Shown in pieces: positions 1 through 60,876 of a stretch of DNA of 64,000 nt; the stretch's first letter is position 1; each line of letters opens with the position of its first letter. Made by a program: the position numbers and the translations under genes. Origin of the DNA: Escherichia coli (GTDB lineage: Bacteria > Pseudomonadota > Gammaproteobacteria > Enterobacterales > Enterobacteriaceae). The notes beneath the pieces are model-generated. The model was not told the DNA's origin and searched no databases. It worked only from the letters and a program-made list of their open reading frames with translations. The stretch lies in NCBI RefSeq assembly GCF_048403405.1, contig NZ_CP183129.1. One strand, written 5' to 3'.

Positions 1-3000
1 TTGCCCGTTCAGTGTCACCGTAATAGTGGTGCCCGCTGGCTGATTGCTGGTGCCGGAAATTTGCAGATCCGCGCCTTTTTCGGTGGCGTTAATTATGTCA
101 TCGGTAGCGATGGTGTTAATGCCAATGGTTGGCGCGGTAAGGTTAACGGTGACCGTGTGCGTTTCGCTGTCGCTATTACCTGCCGCATCGGTAACGGTCG
201 CCATCACGGTTTGCGGGCCGCTACCCAGCGCCGTGACATCCGCCGCCGGAACGCCGACGCTCCAGTTGCCGGAGGCATCCAGCGTCGTGGTGTAGGTTTT
301 ACTGTTTAGCGTGACGGTGACGACATCCCCCGCTTCTCCGCCAGTGCTGGAACCGGAAATCACCAGCGCCTGCCCGTGTTCGGCGGCGTTAATAATATCG
401 TCGCCCGCAATGGTGTTGATGGTAAGTACCGGAACGGTGAGATCCACCGCCAGATTATGCGTGGTGCTCGCCGGGTTGCCCGCTTTGTCATTGACCGTGG
501 CGGTCAGGGTGTGGCTGCCATCGGTCAATGCCTCAAGATCTGCCGCCGGAATATTAATACTCCAGCTACCGTCGGCCTGTACCGTTGCCTGATACGTCTG
601 CACGGTCGGGCTATTGAGCGTTATCGTAACAATCTGCCCTGCCTCGGCAGTGGTGCTGCCGCTCACCGTCACACCCGCATCGGCTTCGCTGGCGTTGACG
701 ATATTGTCGCTGGCAACGGTATTGATAATGATGGTCGGGGCACTGCTATCGACGCTGTAGTTATGCACCGCCGAGGCGCTATTGCCATTAATATTGCTGA
801 CGCTGGCCTGCGTGGAGGCGCTGCCATCGGTTAATAACGCTAAATCGGCAGCGGGAACGGTGGCACTCCAGCTACCATCGCTCGCCACGCTGGCAGTGTA
901 ATTTTTCCCGCCAAAGGTGACGGTGACCGTTTGCCCGGCTTCTACATTTGTGGTGGTGCCGGAAAGGGTTAAATCAGCGCCTTTTTCTGCGCCGTTAATC
1001 ACATCGTCCGTGGCGATAGTGTTGATGGTAATAGCCGCCGGAGTGAGATCCACCGTTACCGGATGCGTAATGCTTATCGGATTTCCGGCGCTACTTTCCC
1101 CGGACACGGCAATATTAATCGTCCCCGCAGGCCAGGCGCTAACCTGCGCCGCCGTGACGCCCACGCTCCAGCTACCATCGGCCTGCACCGCAGTGGTGTA
1201 TTCCACATTATTAATTGTGACGGTAAGCGGCGTGCCTTCAGCCAGCCCCGAGCTGCTGCCGCTGACCACCAGCGCCTGCCCGTGCTCGATGATATTGACC
1301 ACATCATCGCCTGCCACCGTATCGATCCGCAGACCGGGCAGATTGGCGTCGATGGTGATATCCCGCGTGCCGCTGCCGGTGTTGCCGTTTTGATTGGTGA
1401 CCGAGGCGCTCACCGTTAAATCGCCATTACCCAGCGCCTGAATATCTGCCGCCGGAACGCTCACGCTCCAGGTGAGATTGCTGCCCACCGTCGCCGTATA
1501 AGTATTACCGCCCAACGTAATAGTTACCGTGTCGCCATCTTCCGCTCCAGTAACCTGCCCGCTGATGGTTTGCGCGACGCCCGCTTCGGCGGCGTTAATA
1601 ATATCGTCGGTTGCCACCGGGTTAATGGTCACGCCGGGCAGCGCGCTGTCAACCAGCACGTTATGGCTGGCGGTGTTGCTGTTGCCGATACTGCTGGTTA
1701 CCGCCGCCGTTACCGTGTAGTTGGCCTGGCCCAGTGCGGTTACCGCCGATGCCGGAACGGTGACGCTCCAGTTGCCGGAGGCGTCGGTCGTGGTGGTGTA
1801 ATTTTGCCCGTTCAGCGTCACGGTGATGGCGGTATTAACAGGCTGATCGCTGGTGCCGGTAATCTGGACATCGGTTCCTTTTTCGCTGGCGTTAATCACA
1901 TCATCGCCCGCAATGCTGTTAATGCCGATAAGGGGCGCTGCGGTATTGACCGTGACGGTCAATGACTGGCTGCCGCTGTTTCCTGCGCGGTCGGTTACCG
2001 AGACGCTGACAGGATAACTGCCGTCCACCAGTCCGCTGACAACGGAAGCCGGAACACCCAGACTCCAGTTGCCGGAACCATCCACCACCGTGGTGTAATC
2101 GGAATTATTTAACGTAACGGTGACAATATCGCCCGCCTGCGCGCCAGTAACCGTGCCACTGATGATTTGCGCCTGGGTGTGTTCCGGCGTGTTGATGACG
2201 TTATCGGTCGCCACCGGATTAATGGTCACCACCGGAGGCGTGGCATCGACCAGCGCCACCCGTGAAACGCTGGTCGGGTTACCGGCGACATCGTTCACGC
2301 TGGCGGTGACCGTGGCGTTGCCGTCAGCCAGTGCGTCAACATTGGCGGCGGGAACGGTCACGCTCCAGGTGCCGTCGGACTGCACGATGCCCTGATAGGT
2401 TTGCCCATTCAACGTAACGGTCACCGTCTGCCCCGGCTGAGCGTCGGTGGTGCCGGTGATGGGCAAATCCTGCCCGCTTTCGGCGGCGTTAATGATGTTA
2501 TCAGCGGTCAGTGGATCGATGCTCAACGCCGGGGCCTGGCTGTCGACGGTAATGGTGCGGGAGGTGTTGCCGGTATTGCCGCTGAGATCCGTCACAGAAG
2601 CGGTAATCGCCACCGCGCCGTCAGGCAGATTTCCCATCGCGGCGGCAGGTACCGTCAGACTCCAGGAGCCATCAGCCTGCACGGTAGTGGTAAAACTCTG
2701 TCCAGCCAGGGTTACTGTGACGGTTTGTCCTGTCTCGGCCTGTTGAGTGCTACCGGTAAGGGTCAGTGGCGCACCTTTTTCTGCGCCACTGATAATGTCA
2801 TCGCCGGAGACGGTGTTAATGGTGATCAACGGAGAAACACCGACCAGCGTGATTGCTCGAGACGCCGCGCCAGTATTTCCTGCAGCATCTGTCACGGTGA
2901 CGAAAATCGTATTGGCTCCGCGATCCAGCGTGCGGGTTACCGCCGGGTCCAGCGCCACATTCCAGCTGCCATCTGCCAGCACGATGCCCGTCAGGACATG

Positions 3001-3740
3001 AGTGCCCAATTTCACCGTTACCGTATCGCCAGGAGAAGCACCGCTGACTTGTCCGGAGATGATCTGCGCGACGGCCTGCTCGGCATTATTAAGAATATCG
3101 TCGCCCGCCACGGTGTTAACGCTGACCACGGGTGCTGAGGTGTCTACCGTGAAATTCGCGCTGTGGCTGGTGGTGTTTCCTGCCCGATCGCTGACACTGG
3201 CATTGACAGCATAATTACCCTCCGCCAGTGCCTGGACTTCCGTGGCAGGCAGCGTCACTTGCCAGGTTCCGTCGCTACCGACGGTTGCTGTATGGCTTTT
3301 CCCGTTGACGGTCAGTGTTACGGTTTGCCCCGCTTCTGCATTCGACGTGCCGCTCAGTACCAGCGCGACGTTATGTTCCGCAGCACTGATGATGTTGTCC
3401 TGAGCGATGGTGTTGATGGCAAGCGTTGGCGGTTGGGTATCGACCGTTAGCAGCTGCGCGCCGGTGACCGTATTGCCTGTGGCGTCTTTCCCACTGACCA
3501 GCACCGCCTGATTCCCTTCGCCTAACGCCTGTGCATCGGCGGTCGGCACCTGCACGCTCCAGGCACCGTTAGCGCCTACGCTGGTGGTGTAGGTTTTGCC
3601 GTTTAGCGTAACGGTGAGTTCTGTTCCCTGCGCCAGATGGCTACTGGTGCCAGAAAGCGTAAACCCGGCGGCCTGTTCGCTGGCGTTAATAATGTTATCG
3701 CCTGCGGTGGTGGCAACCTGCACGCTGGCCTGACTATTGT
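1..3740 (-). repeat. Tandem array of ~300-bp coding repeats (Ig-like domains) inside the adhesin gene; repeats diverged (~40-60% aa identity by eye)
   Basis: Recurring ~100-aa motif in the hand translation; array start approximate. Confidence 0.7.
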
Positions 3741-4548
3741 CGATGGTTAACGTTATCGAACCGGCGTCAGTGATGGTACTGCCGACAATTTGCACCACTG
3801 ACCAGGTATGTTCACCTGCACTTTGCGTGGGTAACGAGACACTCCAGTGACCGTTGTTGTCTACCTGAGTACTGGCAATAGTATTGCCGTTACTGTCTTT
3901 AATCTGAATAGTCGCCCCCGCCTGCCCGCTGCCGCTAAAGGTTGGCGTGGTGTCATCGGTGATGTCATTGGTGGCGAGAATGCCGCGCTGATCGCCCTGA
4001 TTATCGGTAACTAAGAATGATGGTGTGGCGTTGCCAGGCTCAGCGGGTGGCGTAGGGTTATTAATCACTTCCGTTTTCGAGTCGCCATCACCACCGCTTG
4101 CCAGCAGTGCACCAAGCGCACCACCACCTACCGCCGCCCCCGCCAGCCAACCCCACGGGAAGGCGCTGGTCTGAGCAACGGTATCAAGAAATGGCGCAAT
4201 GCTTTCAATCGCGGTGGTCTGGGCAGTCAGTTCTACGGGGGCTAATCCACCCGCAGCAGTATCGGCAAAGGTGACGTGGGTGAGCTGTTGTCCATCGGCA
4301 AACACCAGTTCCGATTGTTCAGCGGTATTCGCCGCTTGCAGGAAATAACCGTTGCAACGGATCACCGTGCCGTCCTGCATATAGATCAGCAGGTCATTTC
4401 CTTCACGGACGTAACGCGAAACGGCAGAGGCCTGAGCATGAACCTGCACCACGGAAGGCTCATAAATAACAACCGTGACGTCGCCAGGATTAATCAGCGT
4501 TTGTTTGACGGATGTTTTACGCGAAATAACATCAATAATCAGGCTCAT
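1..4548 (-). CDS. Giant surface adhesin / type I secretion substrate, N-terminal ~1515 codons (3' end beyond window start); BapA-like N-terminal domain followed by tandem Ig-like domains
   Basis: Minus-strand frame open from ATG at 4546-4548 (AGGAAT RBS 6 nt upstream) to position 1 with no stop. Hand translation: MSLIIDVISRKTSVKQTLINPGDVTVVIYEP..., then 13 or more ~100-aa repeats (TINTIAGDDIINAAE..ISGTS..GQTVTVTLNG.TYTATV.ADGSWSV.VPAAD..AL.DG..TV.ASVTD.AGN). Plus-strand track ORFs here are antisense artefacts. Confidence 0.85.
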   Translation of the reverse strand, partial: MSLIIDVISRKTSVKQTLINPGDVTVVIYEPSVVQVHAQASAVSRYVREGNDLLIYMQDGTVIRCNGYFLQAANTAEQSELVFADGQQLTHVTFADTAAGGLAPVELTAQTTAIESIAPFLDTVAQTSAFPWGWLAGAAVGGGALGALLASGGDGDSKTEVINNPTPPAEPGNATPSFLVTDNQGDQRGILATNDITDDTTPTFSGSGQAGATIQIKDSNGNTIASTQVDNNGHWSVSLPTQSAGEHTWSVVQIVGSTITDAGSITLTIDNSQASVQVATTAGDNIINASEQAAGFTLSGTSSHLAQGTELTVTLNGKTYTTSVGANGAWSVQVPTADAQALGEGNQAVLVSGKDATGNTVTGAQLLTVDTQPPTLAINTIAQDNIISAAEHNVALVLSGTSNAEAGQTVTLTVNGKSHTATVGSDGTWQVTLPATEVQALAEGNYAVNASVSDRAGNTTSHSANFTVDTSAPVVSVNTVAGDDILNNAEQAVAQIISGQVSGASPGDTVTVKLGTHVLTGIVLADGSWNVALDPAVTRTLDRGANTIFVTVTDAAGNTGAASRAITLVGVSPLITINTVSGDDIISGAEKGAPLTLTGSTQQAETGQTVTVTLAGQSFTTTVQADGSWSLTVPAAAMGNLPDGAVAITASVTDLSGNTGNTSRTITVDSQAPALSIDPLTADNIINAAESGQDLPITGTTDAQPGQTVTVTLNGQTYQGIVQSDGTWSVTVPAANVDALADGNATVTASVNDVAGNPTSVSRVALVDATPPVVTINPVATDNVINTPEHTQAQIISGTVTGAQAGDIVTVTLNNSDYTTVVDGSGNWSLGVPASVVSGLVDGSYPVSVSVTDRAGNSGSQSLTVTVNTAAPLIGINSIAGDDVINASEKGTDVQITGTSDQPVNTAITVTLNGQNYTTTTDASGNWSVTVPASAVTALGQANYTVTAAVTSSIGNSNTASHNVLVDSALPGVTINPVATDDIINAAEAGVAQTISGQVTGAEDGDTVTITLGGNTYTATVGSNLTWSVSVPAADIQALGNGDLTVSASVTNQNGNTGSGTRDITIDANLPGLRIDTVAGDDVVNIIEHGQALVVSGSSSGLAEGTPLTVTINNVEYTTAVQADGSWSVGVTAAQVSAWPAGTINIAVSGESSAGNPISITHPVTVDLTPAAITINTIATDDVINGAEKGADLTLSGTTTNVEAGQTVTVTFGGKNYTASVASDGSWSATVPAADLALLTDGSASTQASVSNINGNSASAVHNYSVDSSAPTIIINTVASDNIVNASEADAGVTVSGSTTAEAGQIVTITLNSPTVQTYQATVQADGSWSINIPAADLEALTDGSHTLTATVNDKAGNPASTTHNLAVDLTVPVLTINTIAGDDIINAAEHGQALVISGSSTGGEAGDVVTVTLNSKTYTTTLDASGNWSVGVPAADVTALGSGPQTVMATVTDAAGNSDSETHTVTVNLTAPTIGINTIATDDIINATEKGADLQISGTSNQPAGTTITVTLNGQ

Positions 4549-4656
4549 AATGGCATTCCTGATAAATGGCGCATATCCTTAGCGAGTCCATTTATCTAAA
4601 TAAGACAAAGGTAATCACTTAACAACGAGGCATACCTGATATTAATAATGGCAGGA

Positions 4657-6012
4657 TTATTTCAAGTCGGGTAAGTCGTTGTATAAGCCCTGTTTAATTC
4701 CCGCTAATGGAATAAGGTTATTCACCGCAGCGGCATAATTTACGGCGGCGACCCAGCCATCATAATTGGCATTTATTTCAGCCGATTGCGCCTGAAAGAC
4801 ATCTTGCTCGACGGTTAATAGATCATTCAGACTGCGTTTGCCCAATTTATATTCATTTTGGTACACATCTCGCGTTTTGTGCGCACTTTCGGATTGTGCT
4901 AAACCGGCTTCTTCGCGACCCCGTGCGCCTGTCCAGTTGGCATATGCCACAGACGCTCGTTGCAGCACATCCAGTTTTGCCTGTTCGACCTGCGAGGCAG
5001 AGATTTTTTGTTGCCCTTCGGCCTGTTGCACCTGGGCAGAAACCGCGCCGCCCTGATACAGCGGCGCGTTAACGTTCAGTTGTAGCTGATCATCCCAATA
5101 CGAGCGGTCGCTGGTCTGGTAGCGCGTTTTGCCCCCCTGAATACTCAGCGTTGGCCAGTATTGCGCTTTCGTTTTTTCCACGCCGTACTGTGCTGACTGG
5201 CGTAAGTTTTCTGCCGCCAGCACCAGCGGGATGGACTGGTAATCAATATTTTTCAGCGATACCGGCTGCTCGGCTAATTCAGCAGGTGGCGCGGCTATCG
5301 CCTCCGGCTGTACGCCAGTGAGCACCGCCAGTTGCGCTTTGGCGCTTGCCATCTGCGCCTGATATTGCTCCAGCGTTGAGCGCATTCCGGCAATGCGCGT
5401 CTGGGCCTGTAATTCATCCGACGACGAGTTCAGGCCAGCGTTAGCACGCAATGCTGCCATGTTGTAGACGTTTTCCAGCGAGTGAATATTGCGTTGAGCC
5501 GCATAGCACAAAGCCTGATAACGACTGACTTCCATATAGGCAGTTGCCGTTTTCTCTGCAACATCGGTTAATGTTGCCATCAATTTAAAGCGGTAGCTGT
5601 CACGGGCGGCAGTTTGCAGTTTGATATCGTTGTTAGTTTTACCAAAGTCATACACCAGCTGTGTCAGGGTTATGCCATACGAAACGTTGTTATCAAGCCT
5701 GCCACTGGAGTCCGTTTGTCGGGACGGTCCCGCATTGCCGGTTAATCCAACGTGCGGATACCAGGCACTTTTGGCTTCATCAATTTGCGCTTCGCCAATA
5801 CCTATCTGCGCCGCCTGTTGAGTGACGTCGGGATTTCGCGCAAAGGCGCGTAATATACTTTCCTGTAAAGATAATTGGGCAACTGGCGTTACCGCTGGGG
5901 CATTCGCCCATTGTGGCAGCGGTGCAGCAATTGCAGCTTCTCCCATCACCATAAAACTTATTAAAAAAATAAACCCATTATTTTTACGGCTTTTAAACTG
6001 GAATCGCGCCAT
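4657..6012 (-). CDS. TolC-family outer-membrane efflux/secretion protein, 451 aa, with N-terminal signal peptide; likely the outer-membrane component for the adjacent adhesin
   Basis: Complete ORF; basic n-region then hydrophobic FIFLISFMVMG and AIA-A signal-peptidase-like site; TolC/OprM-like composition; 108 bp upstream of the adhesin start on the same strand. Confidence 0.75.
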   Translation of the reverse strand: MARFQFKSRKNNGFIFLISFMVMGEAAIAAPLPQWANAPAVTPVAQLSLQESILRAFARNPDVTQQAAQIGIGEAQIDEAKSAWYPHVGLTGNAGPSRQTDSSGRLDNNVSYGITLTQLVYDFGKTNNDIKLQTAARDSYRFKLMATLTDVAEKTATAYMEVSRYQALCYAAQRNIHSLENVYNMAALRANAGLNSSSDELQAQTRIAGMRSTLEQYQAQMASAKAQLAVLTGVQPEAIAAPPAELAEQPVSLKNIDYQSIPLVLAAENLRQSAQYGVEKTKAQYWPTLSIQGGKTRYQTSDRSYWDDQLQLNVNAPLYQGGAVSAQVQQAEGQQKISASQVEQAKLDVLQRASVAYANWTGARGREEAGLAQSESAHKTRDVYQNEYKLGKRSLNDLLTVEQDVFQAQSAEINANYDGWVAAVNYAAAVNNLIPLAGIKQGLYNDLPDLK

Positions 6013-11772: not shown

Positions 11773-12567
11773 ATGGATCTGTTGTACCGGGTAAAAACGC
11801 TTTGGGCCGCGCTGCGCGGTAATCATTACACCTGGCCTGCTATCGATATCTCTCTTCCCGGCAATCGCCATTTTCATCTGATTGGCAGTATTCATATGGG
11901 CAGCCACGATATGGCTCCCCTGCCCACCCGTTTGCTCAAAAAGCTCAAAAACGCCGATGCGCTGATCGTCGAGGCGGATGTTTCCACCAGCGATACGCCT
12001 TTTGCTAATTTGCCTGCCTGCGAGGCGCTGGAAGAGCGCATTAGCGAGGAGCAACTCCAAAACCTGCAGCACATTAGCCAGGAGATGGGCATTTCTACCT
12101 CACTCTTTTCTACCCAACCGCTGTGGCAAATCGCGATGGTTCTTCAGGCGACGCAGGCACAAAAACTGGGGCTGCGGGCAGAATACGGTATCGATTACCA
12201 GCTATTGCAGGCGGCGAAGCAACAACATAAACCCGTGATTGAACTGGAAGGGGCTGAAAACCAGATTGCCATGTTGCTCCAGCTCCCTGACAACGGACTG
12301 GCGCTGCTGGACGATACGCTGACCCACTGGCACACCAATGCACGGTTGCTGCAACAAATGATGAGCTGGTGGCTGAATGCGCCGCCGCAAAATAATGAAA
12401 TAACGCTGCCTAATACGTTCAGTCAGTCGCTGTATGATGTGCTGATGCATCAGCGAAATCTCGCCTGGCGGGACAAATTATGCGCCATGCCGCCGGGGCG
12501 CTATGTGGTCGCAGTCGGTGCACTACACCTGTATGGAGAAGGGAATTTGCCGCAGATGTTGCGCTAA
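11773..12567 (+). CDS. ybaP: TraB-family protein YbaP (264 aa)
   Basis: Complete ORF with AGGGAGG RBS; sequence recognisable. Confidence 0.9.
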   Translation: MDLLYRVKTLWAALRGNHYTWPAIDISLPGNRHFHLIGSIHMGSHDMAPLPTRLLKKLKNADALIVEADVSTSDTPFANLPACEALEERISEEQLQNLQHISQEMGISTSLFSTQPLWQIAMVLQATQAQKLGLRAEYGIDYQLLQAAKQQHKPVIELEGAENQIAMLLQLPDNGLALLDDTLTHWHTNARLLQQMMSWWLNAPPQNNEITLPNTFSQSLYDVLMHQRNLAWRDKLCAMPPGRYVVAVGALHLYGEGNLPQMLR

Positions 12568-12649
12568 AAAAATGGCCAATATCGCTATTGGCCCGTCAAA
12601 GAGGAATTTCATATTTTTATTATTATGCCGTCACTTTAAGCGACGGTGT
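12566..12649 (-). ncRNA. chiX: ChiX (SroB/MicM) small regulatory RNA, 84 nt
   Basis: Reverse complement reads ACACCGUCGCUUAAAGUGACGGCAUAAUAAUAAAAAUAUGAAAUUCCUCUUUGACGGGCCAAUAGCGAUAUUGGCCAUUUUUUU with the CCUCUUUGACGGG seed and terminator hairpin; lies between ybaP and ybaK. Confidence 0.85.
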
Positions 12650-18324: not shown

Positions 18325-18408
18325 GTAGGCATGATAAGACGCGCCAGCGTCGCATCAGGCATCGAGAGCCAAATGCCAGATGCGGCGTGAACGCCTTATC
18401 TGGCCTAC
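18325..18408. repeat. Two REP units in opposite orientation (BIME) between ybaL and gsk
   Basis: GTAGGCATGATAAGACGCGCCAGCGTCGCATCAGGC and GCCAGATGCGGCGTGAACGCCTTATCTGGCCTAC match the enterobacterial REP pattern. Confidence 0.8.
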
Positions 18409-25724: not shown

Positions 25725-27656
25725 TCAAATGGGGCGGATACTTTCTTCATCCAGCTCCGCATCGAAGAATCGACGCAGGGTCTGAATATTATTATCCGCA
25801 ATAATGGACTCGCGCGCCTGCGCAAGTTTTTCTTCGTATATCGCCTGACGCCATTCCAGCGGCGTACGCACCGCGGGATTATCATCTTCAACGATAGTCA
25901 GTTCAACCGTTGAACCTTTTAACGTGCTCAACGCTTCAGCCAGTTTTTGCTGTGCGCCGCGGTTGTTCAAATGCCGCTGAGAGGAGCGCAAATGCAGACA
26001 TACTGCGTTGTCGCTCTCCTCTTTCCAGGCATTTAACGCCACCTGTTCGACCAGTTTTGGTAGCGAAAGTTGACTCACCTGTGCCGCCCACGGGTCGCGC
26101 TCAATGGCTTCTGCTGCCAGCTTCGCCGCCAGTTCCGGCGTTTTTTCATGTTCCAGCGCTTTTTTCAGCGCCTTCGGCGTGGCGACCACTTCTTTTTGCT
26201 GCATCACTGGAGTGGTCGCCTTCCAGCGATACGCTTCTTTTTTGGCTGGCGCTTTTTCCAGCGCCGATGGCACCGGACGCGCCTGAACGCGATCGGTGAC
26301 CGAAGCCAGTCTTTCCAGCGCAGCGTTATTCACCGGCCGCGCGCGGGTAGCGGCTGCCGGTTCACTCTTTTTTGCTTTGGTTGCTCCCTGCACGCGCTGC
26401 AACTGCTGGCGCGCCGCCAGCACCTGGCTGGTGGTTTCCGGGAGCGGTACAGTCGGTGCCTGCTGCGGCGCTGATTGCGGTTGCGGCGGCACCTGGGTTG
26501 GCGTCATTACTGCCGTTGGCGCGACGGGCGCAAAGGACTGGCGTGGCACTTCTGGCTCAGGTAGCGGCATACGCGGATGGAACGCCAGAGCGCGAAGCAG
26601 CGTCATCTCAACGCCCATACGGCGGTCTGGCGCATACGGTAATTCTTTGCGACCAATCAACAGCGTCTGATAGTAAAGCTGAATATCCGTCGGCGGTATG
26701 GTGCGCGCCAGTTCACGCATCCGCAGCTCGATAGCGGCCATGTCGTTGCCAAGTGCAGCAGGCGAAAGTTGTACCATCGCAATACGATGCAACAGGCCGA
26801 GCATTTCCACCAGCAACGCTTCCCACTCGATACCACGGGCAGCGGCTTCATTAATCAGCGCCATTACGCGCTCGCCGTTGGCCTCGACCATCGCTTCAAC
26901 CAGCGACAGCGCCTGATCGTCGTCAAGCGTACCCAGCATCGCACTGACCGCCTGAGTTGAAACCTGGCCGTCACCGCTGGCAATCGCCTGGTCGGTCAGA
27001 CTTAAGGCATCTCGCAGGCTGCCTTCAGCGGCGCGCGCCAGTAATTGCAACGCCCGCGGCTCGTGAGCGATATGTTCTTCGTTGAGGATGTGCTCAAGCT
27101 GATGGCGAATTTGCTCGACATCCAGCGCCTTGAGATGGAATTGCAGACAGCGCGACAAAATCGTCACCGGCAATTTCTGCGGATCGGTCGTCGCCAGCAG
27201 AAACTTAACGTGCTCCGGCGGCTCTTCAAGGGTTTTTAACAGTGCGTTAAAGCTGTGGCGCGACAGCATATGCACTTCGTCGATCAGATAAACTTTGAAA
27301 CGACCACGCGCCGGAGCGTACTGGACGTTATCCAGCAGGTCGCGAGTGTCTTCAACTTTAGTGCGCGAGGCGGCGTCGATTTCAATCAGATCGACAAAGC
27401 GCCCCTGCTCGATTTCACGACAGTTATCGCACACGCCGCACGGCGTCGCGGTAATGCCGGTTTCGCAGTTTAGCCCCTTCGCCAGCAGTCGGGCGATAGA
27501 GGTTTTTCCGACGCCACGGGTGCCGGAAAAAAGATAAGCATGATGAATACGCCCTAACGACAAGCCGTTCGCCAGTGCGGTCAGCACATGTTCCTGGCCG
27601 ACGACGTCAGCAAAGGTTTGTGGGCGCCATTTTCGGGCTAAGACCTGATAACTCAT
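25725..27656 (-). CDS. dnaX: DNA polymerase III tau subunit (643 aa, full-length product)
   Basis: Complete ORF; AAA+ clamp-loader motifs. Confidence 0.96.
   Translation of the reverse strand: MSYQVLARKWRPQTFADVVGQEHVLTALANGLSLGRIHHAYLFSGTRGVGKTSIARLLAKGLNCETGITATPCGVCDNCREIEQGRFVDLIEIDAASRTKVEDTRDLLDNVQYAPARGRFKVYLIDEVHMLSRHSFNALLKTLEEPPEHVKFLLATTDPQKLPVTILSRCLQFHLKALDVEQIRHQLEHILNEEHIAHEPRALQLLARAAEGSLRDALSLTDQAIASGDGQVSTQAVSAMLGTLDDDQALSLVEAMVEANGERVMALINEAAARGIEWEALLVEMLGLLHRIAMVQLSPAALGNDMAAIELRMRELARTIPPTDIQLYYQTLLIGRKELPYAPDRRMGVEMTLLRALAFHPRMPLPEPEVPRQSFAPVAPTAVMTPTQVPPQPQSAPQQAPTVPLPETTSQVLAARQQLQRVQGATKAKKSEPAAATRARPVNNAALERLASVTDRVQARPVPSALEKAPAKKEAYRWKATTPVMQQKEVVATPKALKKALEHEKTPELAAKLAAEAIERDPWAAQVSQLSLPKLVEQVALNAWKEESDNAVCLHLRSSQRHLNNRGAQQKLAEALSTLKGSTVELTIVEDDNPAVRTPLEWRQAIYEEKLAQARESIIADNNIQTLRRFFDAELDEESIRPI
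26362..27656 (-). CDS. dnaX: DNA polymerase III gamma subunit (431 aa) made by programmed -1 frameshift in dnaX
   Basis: Slippery A-AAA-AAG at codons 428-430 (plus 26367-26373); the -1 frame reads AAA AAA GAG UGA, adding one Glu then a stop at 26362-26364. Confidence 0.85.
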
Positions 27657-43016: not shown

Positions 43017-43130
43017 GGGTGGGGGCCCTGCCAGCTACATCCCGGCACACGCGTCATCTGCCTTGGCTGCTTCCTTCCGGACCTGACCTGGTAAACAGAG
43101 TAGCGTTGCGGGAGAACCAACAGAGCCCCC
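43017..43130 (-). ncRNA. ffs: 4.5S RNA (signal recognition particle RNA), 114 nt
   Basis: Reverse complement reads GGGGGCUCUGUUGGUUCUCCCGCAACGCUACUCUGUUUACCAGGUCAGGUCCGGAAGGAAGCAGCCAAGGCAGAUGACGCGUGUGCCGGGAUGUAGCUGGCAGGGCCCCCACCC. Confidence 0.95.
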
Positions 43131-60689: not shown

Positions 60690-60772
60690 AGAGCTCTCTC
60701 TTAGTTTAATTTCCGCCAGGTAATCAGATGACACGACTGTGCTTCACGCCATCTATTAACATGTACGTCAGT

Positions 60773-60799
60773 ATATGGGGATGTTTCCCCCACATTCAA
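60773..60799 (-). promoter_or_regulatory. sigma32 heat-shock promoter of lon
   Basis: Minus strand reads TTGAAT-N13-CCCCATAT, about 85 nt upstream of the lon ATG. Confidence 0.75.
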
Positions 60800-60876
60800 C
60801 GCCGAGAATAGAGGAAAAATTAAAGGGGAGATAAAATCCCCCCTTTTTGGTTAACTAATTGTATGGGAATGGTTAA

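Follow-up and report, generated by a model that had tools for sequence, protein, structure and literature searches.

The dnaX gene examined here lies within a stretch of 64,000 nt of Escherichia coli DNA (the window), and it raises a simple question. Does this locus encode one product or two? The sequence-only reading that preceded this analysis had answered two, on the basis of a slippery sequence that would redirect translation to the 431 aa gamma subunit. Our analysis leads us to the same answer. The locus is almost certainly the E. coli dnaX programmed −1 ribosomal frameshift cassette. What had been noticed there is right and belongs to established knowledge, and no new biology is added by it.

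The importance of the element is that one gene gives rise to two clamp-loader subunits through it. Tau serves as the tether for the polymerase cores and for the DnaB helicase, and gamma is without both of the binding domains. The element is one of the founding examples of a cellular gene that uses programmed −1 ribosomal frameshifting, and the cassette is a standard model in single-molecule translocation studies. The frameshift was reportedly first described in 1990, by Tsuchihashi & Kornberg, by Flower & McHenry and by Blinkowa & Walker, and the stimulators are said to have been defined by Larsen et al. in 1994 and 1997.

The dnaX gene and its slippery heptamer

The features of the locus are collected in Table 1. 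The product of the zero-frame ORF matches the NCBIfam equivalog PRK07994 with 982.5 bits, compared with a cutoff of 613.

Table 1. Features of the dnaX locus, in window positions or DnaX residues.
Feature	Position	Strand	Details
dnaX zero-frame ORF, tau subunit of DNA polymerase III	27656..25725	−	643 codons/aa; ORF list
Gamma coding region	27656..26367 in frame 0, then 26367..26362 after −1 slip	−	431 aa, 1295 nt
Slippery heptamer A AAA AAG	26373..26367	−	last base of codon 428 plus codons 429 and 430
−1 frame codons GAG UGA	GAG 26367-26365, UGA 26364-26362	−	predicted Glu431, the single gamma-specific residue, then the gamma stop
SD-like stimulator AGGGAG	26389..26384	−	10 nt spacer to heptamer; inside Rfam match
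3′ stimulatory hairpin	26361..26332	−	11 bp, two bulges; folding and Rfam consensus
Full DnaX ribosomal frameshifting element, RF00382	26392..26328	−	65 nt; cmscan
Pfam clamp-loader ATPase	DnaX residues 20-178
Pfam lid	DnaX residues 182-230
Pfam domain III	DnaX residues 232-358
Pfam domain IV, DnaB-binding	DnaX residues 417-498
Pfam domain V, alpha-binding	DnaX residues 500-640

Positions 26375..26362 of the minus strand were read directly from the window as GCAAAAAAGAGTGA. Codon 428 is GCA (26375-26373), and it is followed by AAA as codon 429 and AAG as codon 430 (26369-26367). The heptamer occupies nt 1284-1290 of dnaX in phase 2, which is the X XXY YYZ phase relative to the zero frame. It is the sole in-phase X XXY YYZ site across the whole of dnaX. 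The sequence-only reading had staked its claim on an A-AAA-AAG being there in the true sequence at codons 428-430, and on re-reading the window the heptamer is present and exact to the base. GAG UGA follows the −1 slip as had been claimed. When the slip was modelled by translation we obtained a product of 431 aa with the C-terminus ...ATKAKKE, which bears out the predicted length of gamma and has the same extent as the gamma CDS of K-12.

The gene has 643 codons, and the shift at codon 430 comes after roughly two-thirds of its length, at a point 14 residues into domain IV and ahead of domain V. Given the layout of the Pfam domains, a protein that ends at residue 431 would therefore keep the clamp-loader core, with almost none of domain IV and no domain V. 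Several structures in the PDB correspond to the DnaX product. A structure of full-length tau is available, and the 431-residue chain 8giy_B matches DnaX residues 1-430. Entry 1jr3 has gamma 1-373 within the clamp-loader complex, and 5fku_E and 2aya are of tau domain V. The consequence for annotation is that the locus should carry two CDSs, one for tau and one for gamma, the latter as a join of the two segments in Table 1.

AAAAAAG occurs 20 times in the window compared with an expectation of 13.5 ± 3.7, and a count of 20 is reached in 6 of 100 shuffles. This is not significant alone, and the frequency of the heptamer was dropped as evidence. Two further copies are found in the tau-specific part of dnaX, on the minus strand at 26243..26237 and 26165..26159. 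Both have the phase AAA AAA G and are not canonical tandem-slippage sites. A slip at either position would touch only ribosomes already committed to tau.

Elements flanking the heptamer

The next feature is the sequence upstream of the heptamer, where the earlier reading had suggested looking for a Shine-Dalgarno (SD)-like element. AGGGAG was found there, 10 nt on the 5′ side. From the literature (PMC5009743, PMC5389563) we infer that AGGGAG would pair with the 3′ end of 16S rRNA.

The same reading had proposed a stem-loop downstream, to be sought by folding about 26300-26400. Folding of these 101 nt gave a minimum free energy (MFE) structure in which the hairpin is present. The shorter segment 26366..26330 is also predicted to form the hairpin, with an MFE of −19.1 kcal/mol and an ensemble frequency of 0.91. 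Above a lower stem of 6 bp come a bulged A, 2 bp, a bulged C in the 3′ arm, 3 bp and a 5 nt loop, together with a bulged G in the 3′ arm. The hairpin starts 5 nt past the heptamer; leaving out the closing A-U pair makes this 6 nt. The fold is identical to the consensus structure that Rfam gives for RF00382.

The folding energy itself is unremarkable, with z-scores of −0.64 for the 101 nt and −1.81 for the 37 nt hairpin segment. These modest values arise because the region is G+C-rich coding sequence, the shuffles of which fold well too. As structural evidence the z-scores are weak, and we set them aside. The structural case is therefore built upon the covariance-model match and the covariation between species.

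The cmscan match to RF00382 has a score of 96.8 bits (E = 5.8e-20), compared with a gathering threshold of 35 bits, and covers model positions 1-65 of 65. The earlier reading had located the signal at 26362-26375. These coordinates are exact, but the 14 nt hold only the core, and the full element extends over 26328..26392. Judged on the sequence, all the features of RF00382 that can be examined there are present: the score, the dnaX context, the phase of the heptamer, the −1 stop, the SD-like element and the hairpin.

A hairpin in a transcript might also be a transcription terminator or attenuator, or the site might belong to an antisense gene, with the frameshift-like features incidental. Three plus-strand ORFs of 120-134 aa do span the site, but they have no Pfam match at E ≤ 0.01 and are absent from the RefSeq annotation of both E. 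coli TUM14771 and K-12; a scan of the minus strand for terminators gave no match at 26332-26361, where the hairpin is followed by GUGAAUAACG instead of a U run, and we consider this explanation extremely improbable. The terminator or attenuator was rejected for want of a U tract and a scan match, and the antisense ORFs for want of a Pfam match.

Conservation of the cassette

The RNA predicted to act as a frameshift element can be compared with related sequences at increasing distance. The chromosome of E. coli TUM14771 (NZ_CP128875.1) matches the entire 64,000 nt window in a single alignment, with 99.984% identity. The dnaX gene of TUM14771 is identical to that of the window, and in RefSeq the identical 65 nt carry the sequence_feature 'DnaX frameshifting element' within dnaX. 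Among the matches listed, the window dnaX is 100% identical to the annotated dnaX of six E. coli genomes. In the annotation of TUM14771 and K-12 the neighbors of dnaX are apt upstream, and ybaB, recR and htpG downstream.

The annotation of K-12 MG1655 has a tau CDS together with a two-piece gamma CDS (YP_009518751.1) of 1295 nt, the extent of which is that of gamma in the window. The dnaX genes of the window and K-12 are 98.55% identical. There are 28 nt differences, 26 of them at third codon positions, and a single amino acid change, M578T, in tau domain V. Within the 65 nt element there are 0 nucleotide differences, the nearest being at gene nt 1128 and 1449. At a divergence of 1.45% the probability of this is about 0.39, and it was rejected as a signal of conservation. 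Because the element has no differences from that of K-12, nothing novel is left in the window element itself.

The alignment with TUM14771 also identifies other parts of the window by collinearity. On the minus strand, approximately 1-4550 is the 5′ part of siiEA, a giant (~20 kb) gene for a BapA-related adhesin, which the annotation of TUM14771 gives as a frameshifted pseudogene. Before it comes a gene for a TolC-family outer-membrane protein at approximately 4650-6010, also on the minus strand. This secretion/adhesin island is presumably not at this position in K-12. Rfam matches at gathering level were found for four small RNAs: sraA at 60761-60856 on the plus strand, and sroB at 12566-12649, naRNA4 (a REP-derived nucleoid-associated RNA) at 18328-18405 and ffs (4.5S SRP RNA) at 43026-43122 on the minus strand. 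All four are expected for this region of E. coli.

Within the species dnaX is present in 5424 of 5426 complete genomes, and in 5200 of the 5424 it is 95-99% identical to the allele of the window. The 65 nt element is ≥99% identical in 5372 of 5423 complete genomes. One mismatch in 65 nt corresponds to 98.5% identity and falls below this class. The element may thus be conserved above the level of dnaX as a whole, although the genomes are related, so that this population-level figure is suggestive and not a formal test. In this collection 2 of the 5426 complete genomes gave no dnaX match and three gave no match to the 65 nt element, and 2 of the 5424 dnaX matches sit on records labelled as plasmids. 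Since dnaX is essential, these cases probably reflect problems of replicon labelling or assembly.

We then turn to other species. One genome per species was scanned with the pattern AGGGAG-N10-AAAAAAGAGTGA, leaving the hairpin unconstrained. At least 120 loci were found, of which at least 77 lie in dnaX homologues, in Enterobacterales. Among the matches listed the genera with the dnaX cassette are Citrobacter, Enterobacter, Escherichia, Kluyvera, Kosakonia, Pluralibacter, Buttiauxella, Pantoea, Erwinia, Mixta and Serratia. The SD-like element, the heptamer and GAGTGA are fixed by the search pattern, and the sample is therefore uninformative on the conservation of those three. The unbiased part of the sample is the test of the hairpin.

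The 77 dnaX loci among the matches listed contributed 63 distinct sequences to the covariation set. For these 63 sequences the Rfam hairpin is paired in 87.4% of cells. When the 3′ partners were slid by 1-3 columns only 29-53% were paired, about 30% at 1-2 columns. At the closing pair A32-U61, 42 sequences have A-U and 19 have G-C, and the pair is broken in the other 2. Changes on both sides are found at 5 pairs of the hairpin, and the covariation score was reached by 0 of 500 shuffles of the set. Among the matches listed G36-C57 becomes A-U in Mixta, and RNAalifold on the cross-species alignment recovered no more than the lower stem and one upper pair. Only about half of the sequences listed have the three apex pairs of E. 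coli (columns 41-43 with 49-51), because the register of the apex differs between clades. When six divergent genus-level variants were folded clade by clade each formed a hairpin, with −19 to −24 kcal/mol, at 4-6 nt after the heptamer.

One of the dnaX loci departs from this. In Candidatus Pantoea persica (L052:2968-3036, minus strand) AGGGAG, the 10 nt spacer, A AAA AAG and GAG TGA are all kept. What is missing is the 3′ arm of the canonical hairpin, and the best local fold has another shape with an unremarkable z-score of −0.78. This may be a symbiont lineage in which the stimulator is weakened and gamma makes up a smaller fraction. A broader proposal is that the apex is evolutionarily tunable across Enterobacterales, with at least three architectures upon an invariant 6 bp base and the hairpin lost in Ca. 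Pantoea persica, and that the tau:gamma ratio is tunable in consequence. We regard this as very doubtful. If true, the loss of the hairpin predicts a lower gamma fraction in Ca. Pantoea persica.

The 43 pattern matches outside dnaX among those listed were examined and judged to be unrelated. More than 30 Collinsella genomes (L002, L003, L012, L013 and about 30 others) share a near-identical match, exemplified by L003:2457-2484 on the plus strand, GAAGGGAGAATCT GTG CCA AAA AAG AGT GAG AGC... This block was rejected as a dnaX frameshift, as it reads as a ribosome-binding site and then a GTG start codon. A conserved gene seems to begin there, and it is not obviously a frameshift site. Two assemblies seem to have labels at odds with their content. 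That labelled Chryseobacterium sp. 18061 (L065) has an enterobacterial dnaX with 85.7% protein identity to E. coli, and its element differs at 2 of 69 aligned positions from that of Citrobacter sp. 18056 (L062). The other, labelled Enterobacter ludwigii EnVs2 (L081), has a Pantoea-type hairpin. In both cases the assembly seems to be mislabelled or contaminated.

The comparison between species also bears on the possibility that the heptamer results from chance coding of Lys-Lys, with no recoding and a locus that makes only tau. This might seem reasonable given that AAAAAAG is not over-represented in the window and that dnaX contains two other copies. Yet only the copy at codons 428-430 is in the slippery phase, with both stimulators at canonical spacing. 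The strength of the RF00382 match, the covarying hairpin and the absence of differences from the experimentally characterised K-12 cassette all stand against chance coding, which is hardly credible. What is far beyond chance is the combination of the sole in-phase heptamer, a −1 stop one codon on, AGGGAG, the hairpin and a full-length RF00382 match.

Origin of gamma and comparison with known systems

Published experiments describe the behavior of this cassette directly, and it is reviewed in PMC5009743. A_AAA_AAG is the natural shift site of dnaX, where 50% of ribosomes shift and terminate one codon later, and shifting is raised by the 5′ Shine-Dalgarno stimulator and the 11 bp 3′ stem-loop (PMC5009743). 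E. coli has a single tRNA-Lys that pairs more strongly with AAA than with AAG; reading of both codons by a single tRNA-Lys (mnm5s2U34), making A AAA AAG especially shift-prone, is what is expected for E. coli (PMC5009743). In in-vitro translation experiments, shifting was reduced to 2% when the heptamer was changed to G AAG AAG, to 20% on deletion of the hairpin, and to 50% when AGGGAG was replaced by AUAUCA (PMC5389563). Since the sequence in the window is the same as that used in the published experiments, we infer that the mechanism applies here and that tau and gamma would be made in a ratio of ~1:1 by ribosomal frameshifting in this organism.

The proposed course of events would be as follows. 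On arrival at A AAA AAG, the ribosome would have one of the two Lys codons in the P site and the other in the A site. AGGGAG, 10 nt upstream, would pair with the 3′ end of the 16S rRNA while the hairpin would be positioned at the mRNA entrance channel, and jointly these would impede translocation. tRNA-Lys could then re-pair one base back on AAA AAA. Roughly half of the ribosomes would enter the −1 frame, in which GAG is read before termination at UGA, giving gamma. At 431 aa, this would comprise domains I-III of the clamp-loader ATPase and the first few residues of domain IV. The unshifted ribosomes would continue to make tau, with 643 aa, adding the DnaB-binding domain IV and domain V that binds the alpha subunit of pol III.

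Gamma could in principle arise earlier, by slippage of RNA polymerase on the A run during transcription. A homopolymeric A run is present at the site, and Thermus thermophilus makes its gamma in this manner (PMC5009743). However, the run contains only six A, whereas efficient bacterial slippage occurs at runs of 9 A or T (PMC5009743). Slippage of the polymerase would leave unexplained the SD-like element at a fixed 10 nt spacing and the covarying hairpin 5 nt downstream. Moreover, shifting was lost on mutation of the stimulators in in-vitro translation of a defined mRNA (PMC5389563). An origin of gamma in transcription is therefore exceedingly unlikely, and ribosomal frameshifting, which none of the observations contradicts, remains our preferred explanation.

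The ribosomal cassette of the window is most directly compared with that of K-12. The two are alike in codons 428-430, the 431 aa gamma, AGGGAG at −10, the 11 bp hairpin with two bulges and the neighboring genes. There are no differences within the element, and those that exist are elsewhere in dnaX (the 28 nt and M578T).

The dnaX genes of T. thermophilus and Caulobacter crescentus likewise provide two clamp-loader subunits from one gene, in each case at roughly 1:1 (PMC5009743). The routes are different, gamma being generated by transcriptional slippage in T. thermophilus and by proteolysis of tau in C. crescentus (PMC5009743). Where Thermus has a run of ≥9 A, the window has a six-A heptamer in slippery phase, with stimulators that would pair with rRNA and form a hairpin. 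In comparison with Caulobacter, the window has a slippery heptamer with its stimulators and not a protease site.

A likeness outside dnaX is seen in insertion sequence (IS) elements, such as IS911 of the IS3 family. These likewise have an A AAA AAG-type heptamer, often with an SD-like stimulator upstream and a structure downstream, and it is estimated that 56% of IS elements use an SD stimulator (PMC5009743). The outcome of the shift is different. In IS elements it fuses two ORFs to give a longer transposase, whereas in dnaX it truncates the product one codon later. Moreover, the IS element is mobile, while dnaX is a core gene of replication.
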